From NCBI GenBank assembly GCA_023898465.1, contig CP060223.1, positions 320,001 through 384,000 on the forward strand: DNA of 64,000 nucleotides, written 5' to 3'. The first letter of the stretch is position 1. Every line of letters starts with the position of its first letter. The translations under genes were made by a program, and so were the position numbers. Below, in pieces: positions 2,294 to 53,915 of the stretch. Source of the DNA: Candidatus Nomurabacteria bacterium. Its GTDB lineage: Bacteria; Patescibacteriota; Patescibacteriia; HK-STAS-PATE-3. The notes under the pieces were generated by a model. It worked only from the letters and a program-made list of their open reading frames with translations, ran no database searches and was not told the origin of the DNA.

Positions 2294-3568
2294 ATGCCTA
2301 CACCAAGCATCTCCAAAGTTACTGCACTAGAAATTCTTGATTCACGTGGCAATCCTACCGTGATGGCAAAGGTTGAATTAAGCAATGGTATGGAAGCGCG
2401 AGCGGGGGTGCCATCCGGAGCTTCTACCGGACGTTTTGAAGCATTGGAGTTGCGCGATAATGACATTAATCGATACCGCGGCCGGGGCACTCGTAAAGCA
2501 GTAGATAATATTAAGACGGTTATTCACCAAGCGCTAAAAGGTAAAAGTGTTGATGATAGCTCGCAGATTGATCGCATCATGATTGATTTGGACGGTACAG
2601 AATACAAATCCAAGTTGGGGGCAAATGCCATCCTGGCGGTTTCATTAGCCTGCGCGCGCTTAGCCGCAAAAGTCTCAGGTAAACCACTCTATCAGTACAT
2701 TCATGAGCATTATGGTTTTTCTGATCAGCCGCTCCGCTTACCCGAACCCATGATGAACATTATGAATGGAGGTAAACACAGCGACTCTGGCTTATCGATC
2801 CAAGAATTTATGGTTGTACCGCACGCGCCGTCCTTCCATGAACGAGTACGCATCGGCGCAGAAATTTTTATGGCTCTCGGAGATCTCCTTCATCAGCAGC
2901 GGCTCTCAAAGTTGGTCGGAGATGAGGGTGGCTATGCACCACGCTTAGATGCAAACACAAAAGCTTTTGAGATGATTCTCGAAGCAATTCATCAGACAAA
3001 TTACAAACCAATCGATGATGTGACTTTGGCTATCGATGCCGCAGCAACGGTCTTTTATGAAGCTGATCTGAATCAATATCGTCTTATGCCAGAGGATTCA
3101 ACTTACTCGGCTGATAAGTTAGTTGATCTCTATAAAGAATGGACAGAAAAATATTTCCTTCGCTCGGTTGAAGATGGATTGCGTGAAGATGACTGGAACG
3201 GTTGGAAGATGATGACAAAGAAGTTAGGAGGAAAAGCTATGGTGGTAGGTGACGATCTCTTTGTAACGAATCCATCGCGCTTACGAGAAGGTATAAAGAA
3301 AAATGCTGCCAACGCTATCATTATCAAGCCGAACCAGATAGGCACAATGACTGAGGCAATTGAGGCGACAAAACTGGCTCAGCAAAATCATTACGCGGTG
3401 ATTGTGGCGCATCGCTCTGGTGAAACTATTGATGATTTTATTGCTGACTTAGCTGTTGGCGTGAACGCAGATTATATTAAGACTGGCTCCTTGTCTCGTG
3501 GCGAGCGTATGGCAAAATACAATCGCTTGTTGGAAATCGAAATGGAATTGAGTGAGTGGAAGAAATAA
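2294..3568 (+). CDS. eno: Enolase (phosphopyruvate hydratase). True start is the ATG at 2294 (MPTPSISKV...), not the track start at 2234.
   Basis: Canonical enolase N-terminus (I-KV-A-EILDSRGNPTV) and conserved C-terminal barrel motifs. The ORF-track start overlaps the pgk tail, so the internal ATG is chosen. Confidence 0.93.
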   Translation: MPTPSISKVTALEILDSRGNPTVMAKVELSNGMEARAGVPSGASTGRFEALELRDNDINRYRGRGTRKAVDNIKTVIHQALKGKSVDDSSQIDRIMIDLDGTEYKSKLGANAILAVSLACARLAAKVSGKPLYQYIHEHYGFSDQPLRLPEPMMNIMNGGKHSDSGLSIQEFMVVPHAPSFHERVRIGAEIFMALGDLLHQQRLSKLVGDEGGYAPRLDANTKAFEMILEAIHQTNYKPIDDVTLAIDAAATVFYEADLNQYRLMPEDSTYSADKLVDLYKEWTEKYFLRSVEDGLREDDWNGWKMMTKKLGGKAMVVGDDLFVTNPSRLREGIKKNAANAIIIKPNQIGTMTEAIEATKLAQQNHYAVIVAHRSGETIDDFIADLAVGVNADYIKTGSLSRGERMAKYNRLLEIEMELSEWKK

Positions 3569-3577
3569 ACAGCTACT

Positions 3578-5158
3578 ATGGCAACGAAAAAAGGGACTAG
3601 CACAAAAACTTCTCGAGAAGCACATCTTTGGCCCGCAGTATTGTTAGTCATTGATGGCTTTGGTCACGCGCCAGCCGGCCCAGGGAATGCTGTTACCCTG
3701 GCCAAGACGCCGAACCTAACAAAAATTATGAAAGAAAATCCCTGGACCCTACTTGACGCATCTGGTCCAGCAGTTGGTTTACCCCCGGGTCAGGCAGGAA
3801 ACTCCGAAGCTGGCCATATGAACATCGGGGCAGGTCGAGTTGTATTGCAAGATAGCGTGCATATCACGAAAGAAATTGAAGATGGCCGCTTCTTTAAAAA
3901 TGCCGCATTCCTAGATGCTATCCACCACTGTCAAAAACGCAACAGCCGTGTGCATTTGATGGGGTTACTTTCTAACGAACAGAGTGGGCATAGTAATCCG
4001 GGTCATTTGCAAGCACTCTTAAAGCTCATGCGGCAAAAAAAAGTGAAAGAAGTCTATTTACATCTTTTCACTGATGGTCGCGATACACCTCCCCGTAGCG
4101 GCCTCGGCATGCTTCATAAGTTAGAAAAAACTTTGCGACCAAATGAGCGGGTTGTCAGCATCGCCGGACGTCTATGGGCAATGGATCGTAAGAAAAATTG
4201 GCAGCGAACAGATGCCTCATATCATATGCTTATTGAGGGACAAGGTCATCAAGTAAAATCCGCCTCAGAAGCCATCAGTCAAGGCTATGCGCATGGTACG
4301 ACTGATGAATTTATCGAACCCTCTGTCATATTTGAGAAAGATAAGCCGGTCGGTCGAATCGAGGACGGTGATGCAGTCATTTACTTTAATTTACGTTCTG
4401 ATCGCGCCCGGCAGCTTACCAAGCCTTTTGTGCAGGATAACTTCAAAGAATTCCGTCGCCGCAAAGTCATGCACGACTTAGCCTTTGTGGCTATGACCGA
4501 CTTTGGCCCAGACTTGAATCATTTATTGACTGCGTATCCAAGCGTTGATATTCAGGGCACTTTGCCGATGGCCCTAAAAGGGAAGCGGCAAATGTATATT
4601 GCAGAGAATGAAAAATTCGCCCATGTAACGTATTTCTTAAACGGTGGCTATGCTAACCCGGTGGCAAATGAAGATCGCATTATGATTCCTTCACCTGCGG
4701 TTGCCCATTATGATGAGGTGCCTGGGATGTCCACCCCGGGGATTACCTTGCGTACACTTTCCGTTTTGCAAAAAAAGCAGTACGACTTTATTGGCATGAA
4801 CTTTGCCAATTGCGATATGGTAGGGCATACCGGAAATCTCAAAGCCGCCATCACTGCTGTCGAAACCGTTGATGAGGCGATTGGAACTTTATACAAAGAA
4901 ATCCAAAAGCAGGATGGGTTACTTTTTATAACTGCCGATCATGGCAATGTAGAAAGTATGCTCTTCCCAGAAACCGGTGAGGCCGATACTGAACATTCGC
5001 AAAACCCGGTTCCATTCATTATCGCTGGCAAAGTTCCGAAGCAGTTTAACATTTTGAAAAAAGATGGCGTGTTGGGTCAGGTAGCTCCGACCGTGCTTGA
5101 TACTTTGGGGATCCCCATACCGACAGAAATGAAACTCAGTTCACTATGGCAAAAGTAA
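3578..5158 (+). CDS. gpmI: 2,3-bisphosphoglycerate-independent phosphoglycerate mutase (iPGM), paralog 1
   Basis: 526 aa. Conserved iPGM motifs are present: DGFG, the GNSEAGHMN catalytic-Ser region, and the metal-binding C-terminal TADHGN. Confidence 0.88.
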   Translation: MATKKGTSTKTSREAHLWPAVLLVIDGFGHAPAGPGNAVTLAKTPNLTKIMKENPWTLLDASGPAVGLPPGQAGNSEAGHMNIGAGRVVLQDSVHITKEIEDGRFFKNAAFLDAIHHCQKRNSRVHLMGLLSNEQSGHSNPGHLQALLKLMRQKKVKEVYLHLFTDGRDTPPRSGLGMLHKLEKTLRPNERVVSIAGRLWAMDRKKNWQRTDASYHMLIEGQGHQVKSASEAISQGYAHGTTDEFIEPSVIFEKDKPVGRIEDGDAVIYFNLRSDRARQLTKPFVQDNFKEFRRRKVMHDLAFVAMTDFGPDLNHLLTAYPSVDIQGTLPMALKGKRQMYIAENEKFAHVTYFLNGGYANPVANEDRIMIPSPAVAHYDEVPGMSTPGITLRTLSVLQKKQYDFIGMNFANCDMVGHTGNLKAAITAVETVDEAIGTLYKEIQKQDGLLFITADHGNVESMLFPETGEADTEHSQNPVPFIIAGKVPKQFNILKKDGVLGQVAPTVLDTLGIPIPTEMKLSSLWQK

Positions 5159-6744: not shown

Positions 6745-6774
6745 TTACTCCTTGTTGTGATATACTAAATATCT

Positions 6775-9046: not shown

Positions 9047-9075
9047 TTGCGTGAAAGTAGAAAAATTCGTATACT
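9047..9075 (+). promoter_or_regulatory. Sigma70-like promoter upstream of korA: -35 TTGCGT (9047-9052), 17-nt spacer, -10 TATACT (9070-9075).
   Basis: Hexamers and spacing lie in an intergenic gap 12 nt before the korA ATG. Confidence 0.45.
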
Positions 9076-13891: not shown

Positions 13892-14281
13892 ATGCACAAG
13901 GACATTGAATTATATAACAGGGCTTTAACGGCAAAAGAAAAAGCCATTTGCACAACGCTTGCTCACAGCATTGACGAGAGTCTTAAGTTGGCAGAAAGTA
14001 AAATATGGCACGCCCATCCGGTTTGGTTCTTAGCCGGTAATCCCATTGTCGGGTATAGTAAAATGAAGGAAGGTGTTCGGATACTTTTTTGGAGCGGCCA
14101 ATCCTTTGATGAGGAAAAGTTACAACCCGAAGGAAGTTTTAAAGCAGCTGAAGCCAGATATACTAATGTGAAGCAAATGAATAAAACTGACCTTAAAAGG
14201 TGGCTAAAAAAGGCAAAAGAAATTCAGTGGGACTACAAAAATATAGTCAAGCGAAAAGGACGACTTGAGAGGTTGAAATAG
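13892..14281 (+). CDS. DUF1801 (YdhG-like) domain protein
   Basis: About 129 aa with the pattern typical of DUF1801 (…WHAHPVWFLAGNPIVGYS…). Confidence 0.5.
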   Translation: MHKDIELYNRALTAKEKAICTTLAHSIDESLKLAESKIWHAHPVWFLAGNPIVGYSKMKEGVRILFWSGQSFDEEKLQPEGSFKAAEARYTNVKQMNKTDLKRWLKKAKEIQWDYKNIVKRKGRLERLK

Positions 14282-14321
14282 CGTTGTGTTAACTAGACGG
14301 TTCTTGATGGTGAGTTTTTTT

Positions 14322-14547
14322 ATTTAAACAAAGAAAAAGACCCCCCATCAGATGTGCTAATGGGGGGTAGGGACGGGTCTCGGCGGCACCTTAGGGCACC
14401 AGGGGTCCGCTCTGTTCTACGGTCAACTTTTTCACGTCTCAAGGGACGTGCCAAAGAGTGCTGAACAATCACAGACCGCGTTGGCCACTGTATGCACTCG
14501 CTCACCATCCCGTGTGCAGAAGCTAACAAAAACTACCTTTTGCGTCA
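14322..14547 (-). ncRNA. Candidate small non-coding RNA of unknown family (~220 nt). It is bounded on the minus strand by a sigma70-like promoter (-35 TTGCAA at 14577-14582, -10 CATACT at 14554-14559) and an intrinsic terminator (hairpin 14341-14367 plus a T-run on the minus strand).
   Basis: The 350-bp gap contains no convincing ORF. A perfect 8-bp G/C-rich hairpin (CCCCCCAT/ATGGGGGG) is followed by a long T-tract, but only when read on the minus strand. The promoter hexamers sit 17 nt apart, about 220 nt upstream. Confidence 0.3.
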
Positions 14548-14629
14548 ATAGAGAGTATGACAATTACCAACTTTCCTTGCAAAAAAGGTCATTTTCAGGC
14601 ACTATTAGCCCGTACTTAACCACACACCT

Positions 14630-17386
14630 ATGCGCATGCGACGATGGATTCTCACAATAGTAGCAGTAGTTTTTGTGCTCAGTGCTTTAATTGCAGCTTT
14701 AGCGAACACCATAACAGATTGGTGGTGGTTTCAATCGATTCAGCAGACTGATCTCTTCCTCACGCCATTGTATACACAACTACTCTTAGGTTTCGGAGTA
14801 GGCTTATTTGTGGCTCTACTTTTCTTTTTTAATACCTATTTAGTTGGTCGTTTCGCGCGTACGCCATCAAAGACTTTTCAATGGTCACAACGAAAAGGGG
14901 ATGCTGTAGAAATTAAGTCGGTAGCGGTGGCGCCATTTGCTCGCAAGATAAGCATGGTCTTTGCCTTGCTCCTTGGGTTAATTTTTGGATTTACTGCGGC
15001 TAGTCACTGGGAAACCGTGCAACTATTCCTTCATCGTGTGGCTGTTGGACAGACCGATCCATTATTTGGGCGTGATGTGAGTTATTACTTTTTCACGCTG
15101 CCTTTTGTAAAGATTGTGGTACAGACGGCTTTTGCGGCCATGTTACTACTCACCATAACGACCATTGTTTTGTATTTTGTGCATGGTGCCTTAGAAGTTG
15201 GTCGTCGCATTATGGGGCGGGATCGACTGGGTATGAAGACTTTAGTAAGCGCCGCACGTCAGCATCTGTCCATTATCAGCGCGATTCTTTTCGCCTTAGT
15301 CGCTGTTCAGCTTTATTTCATCGCAGTTCCGGATTTAGTGTATAGCGCTACTGGTCCAATCACTGGAGCGAGTTATACCGATGTCCACATCCGCTTGCCC
15401 ATCCTTTATATCGGCACGGGTATTGCGATTCTTCTAGCCGTCAGTCTACTTGCCCACAGTATTAAATCCTCTACACGTTGGGTGGCTGGATTTGCCGGAG
15501 CTTTTCTAGTTCTCTTCATTGTCGGTGGTTGGTTAGTGCCTGATTTGTTGCAGCGCTTCGTTGTTTTACCGAACGAATTAGATAAAGAGTCGGAGTATAT
15601 CACCCGTCATCTCGAGGCTACTCGGCAAGCCTATGGTTTAGATACCATTGAGAAACGTGATCTATCCGGTGACACCGCACTAACCCGGAGTGATATTGAT
15701 GCGAATCCTGGCACAATTAAAAATGTTCGCTTGTGGGATCGCGATCCACTTCTTGATACCTTTAGCCAGATTCAGGAAATTCGCACCTACTATGAGTTTA
15801 ATTCGATCGATAATGATCGCTATACCATCAATGGTGATTATCGTCAGGTGCTATTGTCACCCCGTGAATTGGAGGCTGGGAATCTCCCTCAGCGTAATTT
15901 TATTAACGAGCATCTAACCTTCACCCACGGATATGGACTTACCTTGGGTCCTGTGAACGAAGTCACACCAGAAGGTTTACCAGTGCTATTTGTGCAGGAT
16001 ATTCCACCAAGCTCTTCCACTAATGTTGAGGTGAAGCGTCCGGAAATTTACTTCGGTGAATTAGCAAATGATTACGTCGTAGTAGATAGCGGTGCGAAAG
16101 AGTTTGATTATCCATCCGGTGAGGAAAATGTCTTCAGTGATTACAGTGGAGATGGGGGAGTGCAGGTGAACTCTCTATTCCGTAAGTTGCTCTACGCTAT
16201 TCGCTTCCAATCAAGTAAATTCCTGTTCTCCTCAGATATCAAAGGCGACTCACGCGTCATGTACTACCGTGATATTCAGGATCGAGTGCAGCGTACCTTG
16301 CCGTTTTTACGCTTTGATGGTGACCCATATCTCGTGGTGCGTGATGATGGTTCCTTGACTTGGATCTACGACGCGTATACCACCTCGAATGCGTATCCAT
16401 ATGCCGAGCGAGTCTCTGATGCACTCCTACAGCATAATAGCGGTGGGCTCTATGGTCAGATTAACTACATTCGCAATGCGGTAAAAGTGAGCATTGATGG
16501 ATATACAGGCGCCATGACCTTCTATGTCGCGGACGCTAATGATGCAATTATTCAGGCATATCAGGGCGTTTTCCCGGCTAGCTTCACCTCAATGAATGAA
16601 ATGCCGGATGATTTGCGTTCACATATCCGCTTCCCAGAAGATATGTTCCAGTATTTGACCAACATCTACTCGATCTATCACATGGAGGATGCGCAAATCT
16701 TCTATAACCGCGAGGACCAGTGGTCGATTCCAACCCGGCCAAATGAAAGCTCTGATCCCTTCATGCGACATATGATTATGCGCTTGCCAGAAGAGGAAAA
16801 AGAGGAATACATCCTCATGCTTCCTTTCACGCCTAGGGGTAAAGATAATCTCTCAGCCTGGATGGTTGCCCGAAATGACGGCCAACACTACGGTCAATTG
16901 GTTGTGTATCGATTCCCGAAACAAAAGTTAGTGTATGGCCCAATCCAGATCATCAATCGTATTAACCAGGATCCGGATATTTCGCGACAAATTTCACTTT
17001 GGGATCAGCGCGGCTCAGAGGTTATTCGTGGTAACTTGTTGGTTATCCCGATTGAGTCATCCTTGCTTTATGTGCAGCCAATTTATCTCCGTGCCGAAGG
17101 AGGACGCATCCCAGAGTTGAAGCGCGTCATTGTAGCGCATGAAAACAAGATCGCCATGGAGGAAACGCTTGATCAAGCCTTGATTCGACTTTTCCCTCGT
17201 GATGGAGAGGCGCCAGCACCGAGCAATACCACCGATGAAGAGACTGATACCACGGACGCAAGTGTGGCGCAGCAGGCCAGCGATGCATACCAGCGAGCCT
17301 TAGATGCGCAGCGGAATGGCGACTGGACGACCTATGGCGAGGAGATACAGCGTCTCGGTGAGTTGCTTGGGCAGCTAAACCAATAG
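14630..17386 (+). CDS. Large polytopic membrane protein, UPF0182-like: N-terminal multi-TM region plus a large extracytoplasmic domain
   Basis: 918 aa with about 7 N-terminal TM helices and then a ~650-aa soluble domain. The overall architecture matches UPF0182 family proteins; the family call is by recollection only. Confidence 0.5.
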   Translation: MRMRRWILTIVAVVFVLSALIAALANTITDWWWFQSIQQTDLFLTPLYTQLLLGFGVGLFVALLFFFNTYLVGRFARTPSKTFQWSQRKGDAVEIKSVAVAPFARKISMVFALLLGLIFGFTAASHWETVQLFLHRVAVGQTDPLFGRDVSYYFFTLPFVKIVVQTAFAAMLLLTITTIVLYFVHGALEVGRRIMGRDRLGMKTLVSAARQHLSIISAILFALVAVQLYFIAVPDLVYSATGPITGASYTDVHIRLPILYIGTGIAILLAVSLLAHSIKSSTRWVAGFAGAFLVLFIVGGWLVPDLLQRFVVLPNELDKESEYITRHLEATRQAYGLDTIEKRDLSGDTALTRSDIDANPGTIKNVRLWDRDPLLDTFSQIQEIRTYYEFNSIDNDRYTINGDYRQVLLSPRELEAGNLPQRNFINEHLTFTHGYGLTLGPVNEVTPEGLPVLFVQDIPPSSSTNVEVKRPEIYFGELANDYVVVDSGAKEFDYPSGEENVFSDYSGDGGVQVNSLFRKLLYAIRFQSSKFLFSSDIKGDSRVMYYRDIQDRVQRTLPFLRFDGDPYLVVRDDGSLTWIYDAYTTSNAYPYAERVSDALLQHNSGGLYGQINYIRNAVKVSIDGYTGAMTFYVADANDAIIQAYQGVFPASFTSMNEMPDDLRSHIRFPEDMFQYLTNIYSIYHMEDAQIFYNREDQWSIPTRPNESSDPFMRHMIMRLPEEEKEEYILMLPFTPRGKDNLSAWMVARNDGQHYGQLVVYRFPKQKLVYGPIQIINRINQDPDISRQISLWDQRGSEVIRGNLLVIPIESSLLYVQPIYLRAEGGRIPELKRVIVAHENKIAMEETLDQALIRLFPRDGEAPAPSNTTDEETDTTDASVAQQASDAYQRALDAQRNGDWTTYGEEIQRLGELLGQLNQ

Positions 17387-18010: not shown

Positions 18011-18490
18011 CTATTCACCGCTTGATCCGGCGCCGATCGAGGCTCCAAACACCGTCACTCCGTCGCGTTGTCCGATCATCAAGTCAACCGGTGGGAGTTG
18101 GATGAACTTCATCACATAAGGGTTCAGATACTGCAGTACCCGGAAGTGGGCAGCGTATCCGAGTATCGGGTCAAATCCGTCCGAAGGTTGGAAGCCAAGC
18201 GTTGCTGATACACCGAGGAAAGGAAGCGGTTGCACATGGACATGGCCGCCCAACATCCAGAGGATTTCCTTGTCCTCGACCTGCAGGCAGACTTGGGGTC
18301 CGACCGAGAGGTGGCTGAGAGGAAAAAGTCGATGGTACTGACCGTCGAGACGCAGTTCGTCTTCTTCATCGACTCTGGTGTCGCCACCAACGATGATTGC
18401 TCCGAACTTGGGATGAGTATCGTCGTCAGCCAGGCTTGTCCCAGCCATCAAGCCTAGCAGTAACAGTGAAAAAAGAACGCACACTTTCAT
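18011..18490 (-). CDS. Small secreted hypothetical protein with a signal peptide. The gene is strongly GC-enriched compared with its flanks. Start chosen at MKVCVLFSLLLLGLMAGTSLA…
   Basis: ORF-track 18011..18577 with an internal ATG at 18490 preceded by a GGAGGG RBS. There is an N-terminal signal peptide and conspicuous GC-rich codon usage. A spurious antisense ORF (18230..18457) is typical of GC-rich coding DNA. Confidence 0.55.
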   Translation of the reverse strand: MKVCVLFSLLLLGLMAGTSLADDDTHPKFGAIIVGGDTRVDEEDELRLDGQYHRLFPLSHLSVGPQVCLQVEDKEILWMLGGHVHVQPLPFLGVSATLGFQPSDGFDPILGYAAHFRVLQYLNPYVMKFIQLPPVDLMIGQRDGVTVFGASIGAGSSGE

Positions 18491-18578
18491 GGCACACCCT
18501 CCGTATGCATAGTGGAAACTGACGCTTACTATGGTACTCCAGGAGGGACTATCTCGCAAAAAGTGGAGAAATAGCAAC

Positions 18579-18611: not shown

Positions 18612-19036
18612 TGTGCTGACGTGCGCCGGATGACTGCTCCGCCTTAGGTGGAGAGGAAAGTCCGAACACCCCCCAAGCCCCCCATTTTTGAGAGGTTTGT
18701 GGAAGTAGGTCGTTCCGAAAGGGAACCGAGCAATTGGTTGTAAGCTTTCGGCCGAATAACCAATGGTTTAGGGAAAGTGTCACAGAGACAATACTGCCGA
18801 TGATCTCGCTTAGCGGGATACAGGTAATAGGTGAAAAGTAAGGGCCTAAGAATCCTTTCTCTTCATAGGTGACTATGAGGAGTGAAAAACCCGACCTGGT
18901 GCAAGATCGCATAGGTCTAGTCATTCGACTGGACGGGTAGATCGCATGATCCCGACGGCGACGTCGGGGCTAGAGAGATAGTCATCCCTCATTATGAGGA
19001 CAGAATTCGGCTTATAGGTGTGCGTCAGCACCTAAG
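18612..19036 (+). ncRNA. rnpB: RNase P RNA (bacterial type A-like M1 RNA)
   Basis: Contains the universally conserved P4 strands GAGGAAAGUCCGAAC (about 18650) and ACAGAAUUCGGCUUAUAGG (about 18995). The P10-12 region is also M1-like (AGGGAAAGUG…GCCGAUGAU…GGGAUACAGGUAAUAGGUGAAAAGUAAGG). P1 can pair 5' GUGCUGACG (18613-18621) with CGUCAGCAC (19023-19031). Confidence 0.85.
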
Positions 19037-36764: not shown

Positions 36765-36784
36765 GGCCCGAAAGGGCCTTTTTT
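36765..36784 (+). terminator. Rho-independent terminator after corA (GGCCC-GAAA-GGGCC followed by TTTTTT)
   Basis: A perfect 5-bp GC stem with a GNRA-like loop and a 6-T run, 19 nt after the stop codon. Confidence 0.7.
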
Positions 36785-36798
36785 GGTATACTTAGCTC

Positions 36799-39425: not shown

Positions 39426-39447
39426 AATGTGATATACTGCATACTAT

Positions 39448-44731: not shown

Positions 44732-44767
44732 ATGACTGCGCCAGTATACTCAAAATATGAGGAAAAA

Positions 44768-50892: not shown

Positions 50893-52321
50893 TTTGACGG
50901 CACCTCGAGTCCGATTTGCCCCTTCGCCAACTGGTGAGCTGCACCTCGGTGGATTACGGACCGCATATTATGATTGGTTACTTGCTCGCAAGTATGGCGG
51001 TACATTTGTTTTACGTATCGAGGACACGGATAGGACACGCTATGTAGAGGGAGCAGAAGAGCGCTTGTTAGCAACTCTCCAACAATTAGGCTTGCAGCCA
51101 GACGAGGGTCCGGGCCTGGGTGGTGAGTATGGACCATATCGTCAATCTGAGCGGCTAAGCATCTATCATGAGGCGATACAAGAGTTGATTGAGAAGAAGC
51201 AGGCATATTATTGTACTTGTACACCGGAGCGATTAGAAAAAATGCGTGCTGAGCAAAGCGCAAACAAGCAAGCTCCAGGCTATGATCGACATTGTCGTGA
51301 TCGTTATAATGAAAAACCAACTGAGCCGCATGTAGTACGTTTTCGCATGCCGGATAATGAAAAAATCACGGTAAATGATTTCTTACGGGGTAACTTAAAC
51401 GTTGCTACTAGCACGCTGGATGATTTTGTTATTCTCAAGGCTGACGGGTTTCCCACCTATCACAGCGCAGTGGTCATCGATGATCATGCTATGCAGATTA
51501 CGCACGTTTTGAGGGGCGAGGAATGGTTACCATCATTACCAAAGCACGTTTTGCTTTATCAGGCCTTTGGATGGGAAGCGCCGGTTTTTGTCCACCTCCC
51601 GCTCATCTTAGGTAAAGACAAGAAAAAGCTTTCGAAACGCCATGGCGCGCATTCAGTAGAAAAATTTTTGCAAGACGGTGTATTGTCTGAGCCTTTGTTA
51701 AACGCGATTGCTTTGCTGGGATGGCACGCCTCTGATGATCAAGAAAAATATACCCGCCAGGAATTATTAGCAAAGTTTTCACTAGAAGGATTGCAAAAAT
51801 CTTCAGCAGTTTTTGATCCGGAAAAATTAGCCTGGCTCAATGCGCAGTATATCAAAACAATGGATATAAAAGACTTGAGCGTGCTTGCCCGGCCTTATAT
51901 TTCTGATGTGATCGCTCCGCAATATCTTGAGCGATTAGATGAGGCGCTGCCACTCGTAATTGAACGAATTACACAGCTGAGTGAATTACCTGAGCGGCTG
52001 AGCTTTTTACAGAACGAGTTACACTATGATCAGGAAATCGTTCCCTTCAAAACACAGAGTAGGGAAGAGGCGCATGCCGCGCTTCAGCAAGATATGGATT
52101 GGCTGATGGCGTACAATGGTGAATGGGGTACGCAAGCTTTAGAAAAATTCTTCCATGAGCAAGTAGAAACTCTGGGTAAAAAAGTGGGAGAATATTTTTG
52201 GCCCTTGCGTGTCGCCTTGAGCGGCAAGAAAGCCTCACCTGGGACATTTGAGCTGCTGCATTTCTTCGGTAGGGAAGAGGCGCAAAAGCGCATTCAACAA
52301 GCATTGCAAGCGCTTCAATAA
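50885..52321 (+). CDS. gltX: Glutamyl-tRNA synthetase
   Basis: HIGH motif (PSPTGELHLGG), KMSKS variant (KLSKR) and an anticodon-binding C-terminal domain. 478 aa. Confidence 0.95.
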   Translation: MADLTAPRVRFAPSPTGELHLGGLRTAYYDWLLARKYGGTFVLRIEDTDRTRYVEGAEERLLATLQQLGLQPDEGPGLGGEYGPYRQSERLSIYHEAIQELIEKKQAYYCTCTPERLEKMRAEQSANKQAPGYDRHCRDRYNEKPTEPHVVRFRMPDNEKITVNDFLRGNLNVATSTLDDFVILKADGFPTYHSAVVIDDHAMQITHVLRGEEWLPSLPKHVLLYQAFGWEAPVFVHLPLILGKDKKKLSKRHGAHSVEKFLQDGVLSEPLLNAIALLGWHASDDQEKYTRQELLAKFSLEGLQKSSAVFDPEKLAWLNAQYIKTMDIKDLSVLARPYISDVIAPQYLERLDEALPLVIERITQLSELPERLSFLQNELHYDQEIVPFKTQSREEAHAALQQDMDWLMAYNGEWGTQALEKFFHEQVETLGKKVGEYFWPLRVALSGKKASPGTFELLHFFGREEAQKRIQQALQALQ

Positions 52322-52330
52322 TAGTTAGTC

Positions 52331-52385
52331 GCAGGCGAGGAGTTTATCCTCGCCGAATCCAAACGCCCAAGATAAATTCTTGGGC
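52331..52385. repeat. Left arm of a 55-nt inverted-repeat pair (double-hairpin element: GGCGAGGA-GTTTA-TCCTCGCC … GCCCAAGA-TAAAT-TCTTGGGC)
   Basis: Its reverse complement matches 54771-54824 at 52 of 54 positions. It lies 10 nt after the gltX stop. Confidence 0.85.
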
Positions 52386-52526
52386 TACGCGTGAATGAGT
52401 ATCTTCAGCAATAAATGCATTCACACAAGCGTAACAAGAGTAAGACTTGTGCGATATACAGTATGTTAACGGTTTTTTGTGAGGACTAGCCAAAAACTTT
52501 ATCTCGTGCTATAGTATATAGGCAAT

Positions 52527-53852: not shown

Positions 53853-53887
53853 CATTCTTGTGTGAATGTTGTCGAATTGCCGCAGGC

Positions 53888-53915
53888 CTTTACCGGGCCT
53901 GTTTTGTTAGGTACT
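53888..53915 (+). terminator. Rho-independent terminator after the M23 peptidase gene (CAGGCC-TTTACCG-GGCCTG followed by TTTT)
   Basis: A GC-rich hairpin plus a T-run about 35 nt after the stop codon. Confidence 0.55.

Follow-up and report, generated by a model that had tools for sequence, protein, structure and literature searches.

A 348-bp gap upstream of a UPF0182 gene in a Candidatus Nomurabacteria genome is probably the site of an independent gene for a non-coding, structured RNA of ~180 nt, encoded on the minus strand and apparently the positional counterpart of a small RNA (sRNA) encoded divergently from UPF0182 in related genomes. A first-pass annotation of the same DNA had described a minus-strand unit bounded by a promoter and a terminator, and every in-silico test that was run agrees with this candidate. 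The window, i.e. the whole stretch of DNA analysed here (64,000 nucleotides), belongs to a Candidatus Nomurabacteria MAG of the Patescibacteria, also known as the Candidate Phyla Radiation (CPR).

The gap and its transcription signals

Genes in the first 42 kb of the window lie almost all on the plus strand and are tightly packed, which makes a gap of 348 bp conspicuous. DUF1801 flanks it on the 5′ side, with RecJ and RNase H-like genes farther upstream, and UPF0182 flanks it on the 3′ side (Table 1); apart from its own entry, the closest proteins to UPF0182 are only 62%, 60% and 58% identical. The earlier statement that the gap lacks a credible ORF is borne out by the gene calls, the ORF list and Pfam.

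Table 1. Coordinates of the features discussed (window positions, unless a locus of a relative is named)
Feature	Coordinates	Strand	Remarks
Gap	14282-14629		348 bp, between DUF1801 (+) and UPF0182 (+), without credible genes
DUF1801 gene	13895 (annotated start)-14281	+	5′ side of the gap
UPF0182 gene	14630-17386	+	3′ side of the gap; ATG at 14630
RNase P RNA	18618-19030		Rfam
Promoter P1 (first-pass annotation)	14554-14582	-	TTGCAA-17-CATACT; possible upstream tandem promoter
Promoter P2	14520-14548	-	-35 TTGACG (14548-14543), 17-nt spacer ending TGT (extended -10), -10 TAGCTT (14525-14520)
Putative UPF0182 promoter	14577-14605	+	TTGCAA-17-CACTAT; sequence reading, by analogy with the relatives' -10 GTGTATAAT
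Candidate sRNA primary transcript	14330-14513	-	~180 nt, from P2 start to end of U-tract; both ends predicted
Rod-like imperfect hairpin	14370-14511	-	142 nt; ~45 pairs including several G-U; closing stem GGGAUGG/CCGUCCC
Apical hairpin CACGUC-CCUUGA-GACGUG	14433-14450	-	Tip of the rod; in minimum-free-energy and centroid folds
Intrinsic terminator	14326-14368	-	Stem ACCCCCCAUUAG/CUGAUGGGGGGU (14368-14340), then CUUUUUCUUUGUUU
ORF of 69 aa (62 aa from ATG 14507)	14529/14507-14320	-	
ORF of 43/38 aa	14563/14548-14432	-	
ORFs of 36 aa and 70 aa	gap	+	
Protein-gene extended -10, examples	1073-1083, 6756-6766, 9066-9075, 36782-36792, 39428-39438, 44743-44753		
Relative's hairpin sRNA, L012	9882-9722	-	Unannotated
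Relative's hairpin sRNA, L013	9881-9730	-	Unannotated
Relative's hairpin sRNA, L015	9884-9728	-	Unannotated
Relative's hairpin sRNA, L020	2872-2738	-	Unannotated
Relative's hairpin sRNA, L021	2873-2738	-	Unannotated
Relative's hairpin sRNA, L098	3888-3752	-	Unannotated

No canonical intrinsic terminator elsewhere in the window is as strong as the one in this gap. A generic scan called it on the minus strand as 12 pairs, seven of them G-C, with a 5-nt loop and CTTTTTCTTT thereafter; a G+C-rich hairpin and a directly adjoining U-tract on the transcribed strand, the hallmarks of intrinsic termination, are thus both present (12-bp stem, tail CUUUUUCUUU). The first-pass annotation had reported an 8-bp stem at 14341-14367, which the call at 14368-14340 lengthens to 12 bp, and it had rightly assigned the terminator to the minus strand only, since the U-tract is confined to that side; read on the plus strand, the same hairpin has an A-run before its stem and no U-run after it. 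Because the lenient class of the generic scan occurs at chance frequency (two found against 2.4 expected in a 2-kb region), a strict class was used instead, requiring a perfect stem of 10 bp or more, six or more of the pairs G-C, and then at least six T in nine bases. Two sites of the strict class exist in the window, both on the minus strand (14368-14340 and 18001-17978), while the expectation is 0.017 per simulated 64-kb window (one in 60 simulations). The second site ends the only nearby minus-strand protein gene (18011-18577); together with a terminator at 53883-53901, it illustrates that canonical U-tract terminators serve real genes of the window.

Two minus-strand promoters can be read upstream of the terminator. 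P1, the promoter originally proposed, is present at 14582-14554 as described and fits a genome-specific pattern, TTG-N21-ATACT. The window matches this pattern seven times where 2.1 matches are expected, and of the six besides P1, four lie just upstream of genes. P1 is a weak promoter, however, agreeing with the sigma-70 consensus at eight of 12 positions and escaping the generic scan, and a better one, P2, lies 34 nt downstream. The pattern of P2, TTGAC-N15-TGnTAnnnT, has this single match on both strands of the 64-kb window (0.07 expected), and the broader TTGACR-N17/18-TAnnnT has eight matches against 2.0 expected, seven of them in front of genes; the P2 pattern was formulated after viewing the window and the relatives, and these statistics are therefore somewhat post hoc. 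Matches to the broader pattern directly precede RNase P RNA (18579), tRNA-Thr (31422, minus strand) and tRNA-Gln (35604), and three more stand before protein genes. Since P2 shares this pattern with the RNase P RNA and tRNA sites, it appears to be of the type that this genome uses for stable-RNA genes.

P2 predicts a transcription start at about A14513, and its -35 element lies 82 nt from the UPF0182 ATG. P1 is probably secondary to P2, and as a tandem promoter it may add a 5′ leader of ~35 nt to the RNA. The putative promoter of UPF0182 stands back to back with the sRNA promoters, and the TTGCAA of P1 may instead be the -35 element of that plus-strand promoter. The hexamer (14577-14582) is palindromic, and a distance of 17 nt separates it both from the minus-strand CATACT and from the plus-strand CACTAT. 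A single -35 TTGCAA could, judging by this spacing, serve both the sRNA and the UPF0182 promoters.

Protein genes of the window are organized differently. Most lack a Shine-Dalgarno (SD) sequence and carry an extended -10 element, TGnTATACT, only 11-12 nt before the ATG, so that their mRNAs must be nearly leaderless; the window therefore contrasts TTGACR-N17/18-TAnnnT at stable-RNA genes with TGnTATACT at protein genes. In line with this scarcity of SD sequences, an anti-SD motif is detectable in just 48% of Parcubacteria (PMC9297842). As to 3′ ends, two successive hairpins without U-runs (GGCGAGGAG...CTCCTCGCC and GCCCAAGA...TCTTGGGC) follow a plus-strand gene ending at 52321, at 52325-52400, and some 3′ ends of this genome therefore do without a canonical U-tract. 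A near-perfect, G+C-rich palindrome, GTGGGGAAGAAACGC...GCGTTCTTTCCCCCAT, occupies 964-998 between a gene ending at 961 and one starting at 1096; it was matched on both strands, by shape alone, by one of the covariance models described below (R1) and is probably a 3′-end structure.

Fold, coding potential and known RNA families

The predicted RNA is delimited closely by its own structure. Transcription would begin 2 nt ahead of the first base pair in the 142-nt rod, and 1 nt separates the last pair of the rod (14370) from the terminator hairpin; because start and terminator abut the rod in this manner, the ~180-nt RNA would consist of two hairpins and have nearly no single-stranded ends. The internal hairpin CACGTC/GACGTG of the first-pass annotation is real and forms the tip of the rod. 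In the minimum-free-energy fold the rod is interrupted by small internal loops only, and the centroid fold has a 7-bp closing stem followed by a loosely paired region of 15+16 nt that is not central. The rod alone has a minimum free energy of -54.4 kcal/mol (z -2.47, two of 200 shuffles as good) against z -1.48 for the plus strand, and the whole minus-strand transcript reaches -82.7 kcal/mol (z -3.0) against z -2.1. The predicted folding advantage of the minus strand over both shuffles and the plus strand is modest, its asymmetry between the strands resulting from the several G-U pairs of the rod. As the searches for homologues of the window RNA came back empty, the rod has no covariation support of its own.

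Coding in the gap is unlikely, a verdict that is less firm for a 43-aa ORF. The 69-aa ORF had been taken for the sole ORF, yet three more are present, that of 43 aa on the minus strand and, on the plus strand, two of 36 and 70 aa; the 69-aa ORF itself exists as described (14320-14529), except that its stop codon lies just past the T-tract and not inside it. The codon-usage log-odds of the gap ORFs range from -0.05 to -0.27 (-0.055 for the 43-aa ORF), compared with a mean of 0.27 and a fifth percentile of 0.09 for 65-codon windows of real genes and a mean of -0.42 off-frame. Pfam has no family match to the gap ORFs even at E<=10, and phmmer, run with the 69-aa ORF against 1.84 billion representative proteins, returned five weak low-complexity matches only. 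These fall on proteins of 680-943 aa and are scattered over 5-10 stretches in each, a distribution that indicates compositional bias, not homology. Codon usage, Pfam and, for the 69-aa ORF, phmmer thus agree with the earlier judgement that the gap is non-coding. In addition, ATG 14507 falls within the stem that closes the rod, and the frame of the 69-aa ORF runs through the terminator hairpin.

Searches with models of known RNAs point to an RNA that belongs to no described family. At gathering score, Rfam 15 reported no family in the gap, and relaxing the cutoff to E<=10 for the interval 14200-14700 (501 nt, both strands) brought up chance-level matches only, none of them to 6S RNA, SRP RNA or tmRNA; the best, to PyrR, scored 21.5 bits against a gathering score of 54 and was driven by the terminator. 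ARAGORN found three tRNAs in the window, none of them in the gap, and no tmRNA. The first-pass conclusion that the transcript is not RNase P RNA, tmRNA or SRP RNA is in keeping with the silence of both programs in the gap, and as cmscan of both strands returned no family, nothing redefines the feature as a plus-strand RNA. Identification as tmRNA, an RNA with a tRNA-like domain and a tag reading frame, is rejected because neither program reported one in the gap. The domain IV consensus of SRP RNA is a GNRA tetraloop; identification as SRP RNA (RF00169/RF01854) is rejected for want of an Rfam match and because the apical loop is CCUUGA, with no GNRA tetraloop. The suggestion of 6S RNA lacks support: Rfam has no match even at E<=10, and no clear central bubble is seen, the minimum-free-energy fold having small internal loops and the centroid fold a loose region of 15+16 nt next to the closing stem.

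Several possible origins of the gap DNA were also rejected. Self-BLAST of the gap within the window was empty (paralogue or mobile repeat), as was tblastx against the syntenic locus L008 (degraded gene); blastn of phage and plasmid collections gave no real match, and nhmmer and BLAST of the window RNA against the fetched loci found no similar DNA. Our literature search found no work on small RNAs in CPR bacteria and nothing relevant on 6S RNA in these bacteria or on UPF0182-linked RNA.

Hairpin RNAs divergent from UPF0182 in relatives

The neighbourhood of the gap has been rearranged. DUF1801 shares 73-76% protein identity and 73% DNA identity with Bacteroidota genes (Niastella-, Chitinophagaceae-like), while the genes around it are typical of the CPR and do not exceed ~60% identity to anything else; DUF1801 is thus probably a recent horizontal acquisition by this CPR genome. 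The gap was not part of the similar Bacteroidota DNA, as the similarity to the Bacteroidota locus L102 stops at the DUF1801 coding sequence; DUF1801-linked Bacteroidota DNA is therefore rejected as its source. L101, a 1.7-kb contig of a close relative (SRR17818317), shows 91.5% DNA identity to the window across RNase H and DUF1801, and this similarity is lost 10-13 nt before the DUF1801 stop (L101 774 of 784; window 14268 of 14281). Beyond that point, L101 (775-1747) has two minus-strand hypothetical ORFs of 115 and 95 aa with strong GGAGG sites, both ending with the same terminator, GACGACC...GGGTCGTC, which suggests an inserted foreign cassette. GGAGG sites of this kind are unusual for the lineage. 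The divergence at the end of DUF1801 places the gap at a rearrangement breakpoint and implies that the sRNA locus is evolutionarily labile.

The two closest relatives by UPF0182 identity, L008 (62%) and L001 (60%), have no such RNA beside UPF0182. L008 keeps the order RecJ, RNase H, UPF0182, RNase P with other genes in the interval; its intergenic stretches between RNase H and a metallophosphatase gene contain AACGTTTCGGCG three times (3160-3980). A search with the UPF0182 N-terminus for closer relatives found none, and Rfam on 17 further UPF0182 loci from other phyla reported tRNAs only.

A clade whose UPF0182 is 54-57% identical to that of the window has an sRNA gene on the divergent strand, in a region of 280-355 bp upstream of UPF0182. 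Its loci are L012; L013 (= L014, L018); L015 (= L016); L020 (= L100); L021; and L098 (= L099). The promoter, TTGACA-N17-TA(G/T/A)nnT with an extended TG, lies 78-94 nt from the UPF0182 start (82 in the window), and the gene comprises a leader of ~40 nt, a conserved hairpin of 85-100 nt and a U-run terminator, followed by a separate promoter and Dus. The 18-bp basal stem of the hairpin has 92.6% of cells paired and seven pairs with changes on both sides, and its covariation score is 0.43, compared with 0.04-0.18 for slid controls. Invariant U-G pairs, which would be A-C mismatches on the opposite strand, fix the strand of the relatives' RNA. In L020, L021 and L098 the counterparts are almost continuous hairpins without a bubble, and the rod itself is the terminator hairpin. 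Rfam has no family match to these hairpin RNAs, which makes the RNA between Dus and UPF0182 a good candidate for a new RNA family. Overall, the comparison shows that a predicted sRNA gene recurs in the position divergent from UPF0182.

The window RNA resembles these RNAs in its setting and general plan. Position, orientation and the TTGAC-N15-TGnTAnnnT promoter are the same, and in both cases the rod is closed by GGG(G)AU.../...(A/G)UCCC and accompanied by a U-run terminator. There are also differences: the window RNA begins directly with its rod, whereas in the relatives a 5′ leader of ~40 nt, which includes a small hairpin, comes first; the relatives' rod measures 85-100 nt against 142 nt; and their RNA is encoded upstream of Dus on the same strand, whereas no minus-strand gene follows in the window. 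Homology between the two is unproven, all tests of it having been negative. Profiles built from the relatives' RNA matched nothing in the window RNA with nhmmer, pairwise alignments scored no better than shuffles, covariance model R1, run over the whole window with filters off, had no match in the gap, and model R2, run on the gap alone, gave a best score of 2.1 bits (E 1.5) on the terminator. A 9-mer, GUAGAACAG, common to the window RNA and L021 and spotted by eye, is not significant. The covariation analysis suggested earlier thus has a divided outcome, in that it yielded no homologue of the window RNA and did reveal a covarying hairpin RNA at the same position. Pairing of the sRNA with the UPF0182 translation start was likewise discarded as an explanation, RNAduplex giving nothing better than shuffles for the window or the relatives, a method that is uninformative at such lengths.

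Taken at face value, these comparisons suggest that the sRNA locus of the window is probably fast-evolving and lineage-specific. That the window RNA and the relatives' RNAs are orthologues of one ancient, fast-evolving and abundant Patescibacteria RNA, linked to UPF0182 by function despite scrambled gene order, is conceivable but unlikely. If they were orthologues, the RNA might regulate UPF0182 or act as its partner, or it might stand in for a housekeeping RNA, such as 6S RNA, that standard models miss in these reduced genomes.

Interpretation and comparison with known systems

From the signals, the fold and the conserved position we infer the following course of transcription, ends, abundance and function of the RNA. 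RNA polymerase would start at ~14513 from P2, a sigma-70 promoter of the stable-RNA type, to which P1 may contribute. The RNA would fold at once into the 142-nt rod (14511-14370) and would be released at the terminator (14368-14326) before the polymerase meets the DUF1801 gene head-on. With both ends paired, it would presumably be a stable regulatory or protein-binding RNA. Its control region of ~80-100 bp, back to back with the UPF0182 promoter, suggests a probable co-regulation of the two genes, as in known divergent sRNA/protein pairs.

Other readings of the gap are conceivable. 6S RNA is an abundant, rod-shaped RNA that ties up the RNA polymerase holoenzyme by imitating an open promoter, and its sequences are poorly conserved. 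The window RNA could be the 6S RNA (SsrS) of this lineage, with the same holoenzyme-sequestering role, on the grounds that it has the appropriate length of ~180 nt, a rod with paired ends and a strong promoter of the stable-RNA type, and that the loose 15+16-nt region behind the 7-bp closure in the centroid fold could act as a bubble. The Rfam model remains silent on the 501-nt search even at E<=10, however, the loose region sits off-centre beside the 7-bp stem, no large bubble opens in the middle of the minimum-free-energy fold, and L020, L021 and L098 have near-continuous hairpins as counterparts, which together make a 6S RNA rather improbable. Alternatively, transcription itself might be what matters: a strong divergent promoter would tune UPF0182 via promoter competition or supercoiling, the terminator would insulate the upstream plus-strand genes, and the RNA would be a by-product. 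The close apposition of the promoters, which stand back to back within ~100 bp both here and in the relatives, accords with such an arrangement, as does the divergence of the RNA sequence beyond recognition while promoter type and position were kept, and in L020, L021 and L098 the rod is nothing other than the terminator hairpin. Yet a by-product has no need of a 142-nt rod, and in L012, L013 and L015 the basal stem covaries despite a separate terminator, which implies selection on RNA structure there; we give this reading as little weight as the preceding one.

It is very unlikely that the gap has no dedicated transcript at all, the hairpin at 14340-14368 being a 3′-end or stabiliser of the plus-strand DUF1801 mRNA and the remainder a non-functional spacer left by rearrangement next to a horizontally acquired gene. 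The gap does lie at a synteny breakpoint beside DUF1801, with its 73-76% identity to Bacteroidota proteins, some plus-strand genes do precede hairpins without U-runs (e.g. 52330-52400) and the z-score of the rod is modest. Against this, the U-tract is found on the minus-strand side only, U-tract terminators are used by real genes of the window (18001-17978, 53883-53901), and a promoter of the stable-RNA type, unique in the window, points into the rod and the terminator. Still less likely is a small minus-strand protein gene, using the 43/38-aa or the 69/62-aa ORF, despite the two small minus-strand protein genes with similar terminators at the equivalent position in L101 and an ambiguous codon score for the 43-aa ORF (-0.055). 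It is important to point out that a missing ribosome-binding site proves nothing here, as this genome hardly uses SD sequences and its starts are near-leaderless (PMC9297842). Rather, the case against a protein is made by codon usage, which puts all gap ORFs under the fifth percentile of real genes, by the lack of a Pfam match and the purely low-complexity matches of the 69-aa ORF among 1.84 billion representatives, and by geometry: the P2 transcript begins downstream of the start codons of the 43-aa ORF, ATG 14507 is sequestered where the rod closes, and the 69-aa ORF crosses the terminator hairpin.

An independent gene for a structured sRNA is therefore the reading that we prefer. A gene extending from promoter to terminator is of an ordinary kind, and what is new is this instance and the candidate family in the relatives. 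Patescibacteria have tiny genomes and are mostly unculturable, and a delimited sRNA gene offers a concrete target for metatranscriptomics. The locus also provides a handle on the regulation of UPF0182, a conserved and widespread membrane protein of uncharacterised function. Its value would rise if the RNA proved abundant in transcriptomes, or if bridging homologues tied the RNA to UPF0182 across the Patescibacteria.

Among known systems, SRP RNA (4.5S, RF00169) is, as predicted for the window RNA, one long hairpin expressed from a promoter dedicated to it, and differs in the apical loop, which is a hexaloop (CCUUGA) in the window, where no domain IV loop motifs are seen. 6S RNA (SsrS, RF00013) is similar in its length of ~180 nt, in its rod with paired 5′ and 3′ ends and in having its own strong promoter, predicted in the case of the window RNA; the latter differs in having no Rfam match, no central bubble in its minimum-free-energy fold and no linkage to the known neighbour genes of 6S RNA. 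In enterobacteria, divergent pairs of sRNA and protein genes are known from MicF/ompC, OxyS/oxyR and GcvB/gcvA. These sRNAs have no kinship in sequence or structure with the window RNA; they are Hfq-dependent and expose single-stranded seed regions, while the window RNA is predicted to be almost fully paired. The likeness lies in the arrangement: promoter and Rho-independent terminator belong to the sRNA gene itself, which is placed back to back with a protein gene across a short common control region.
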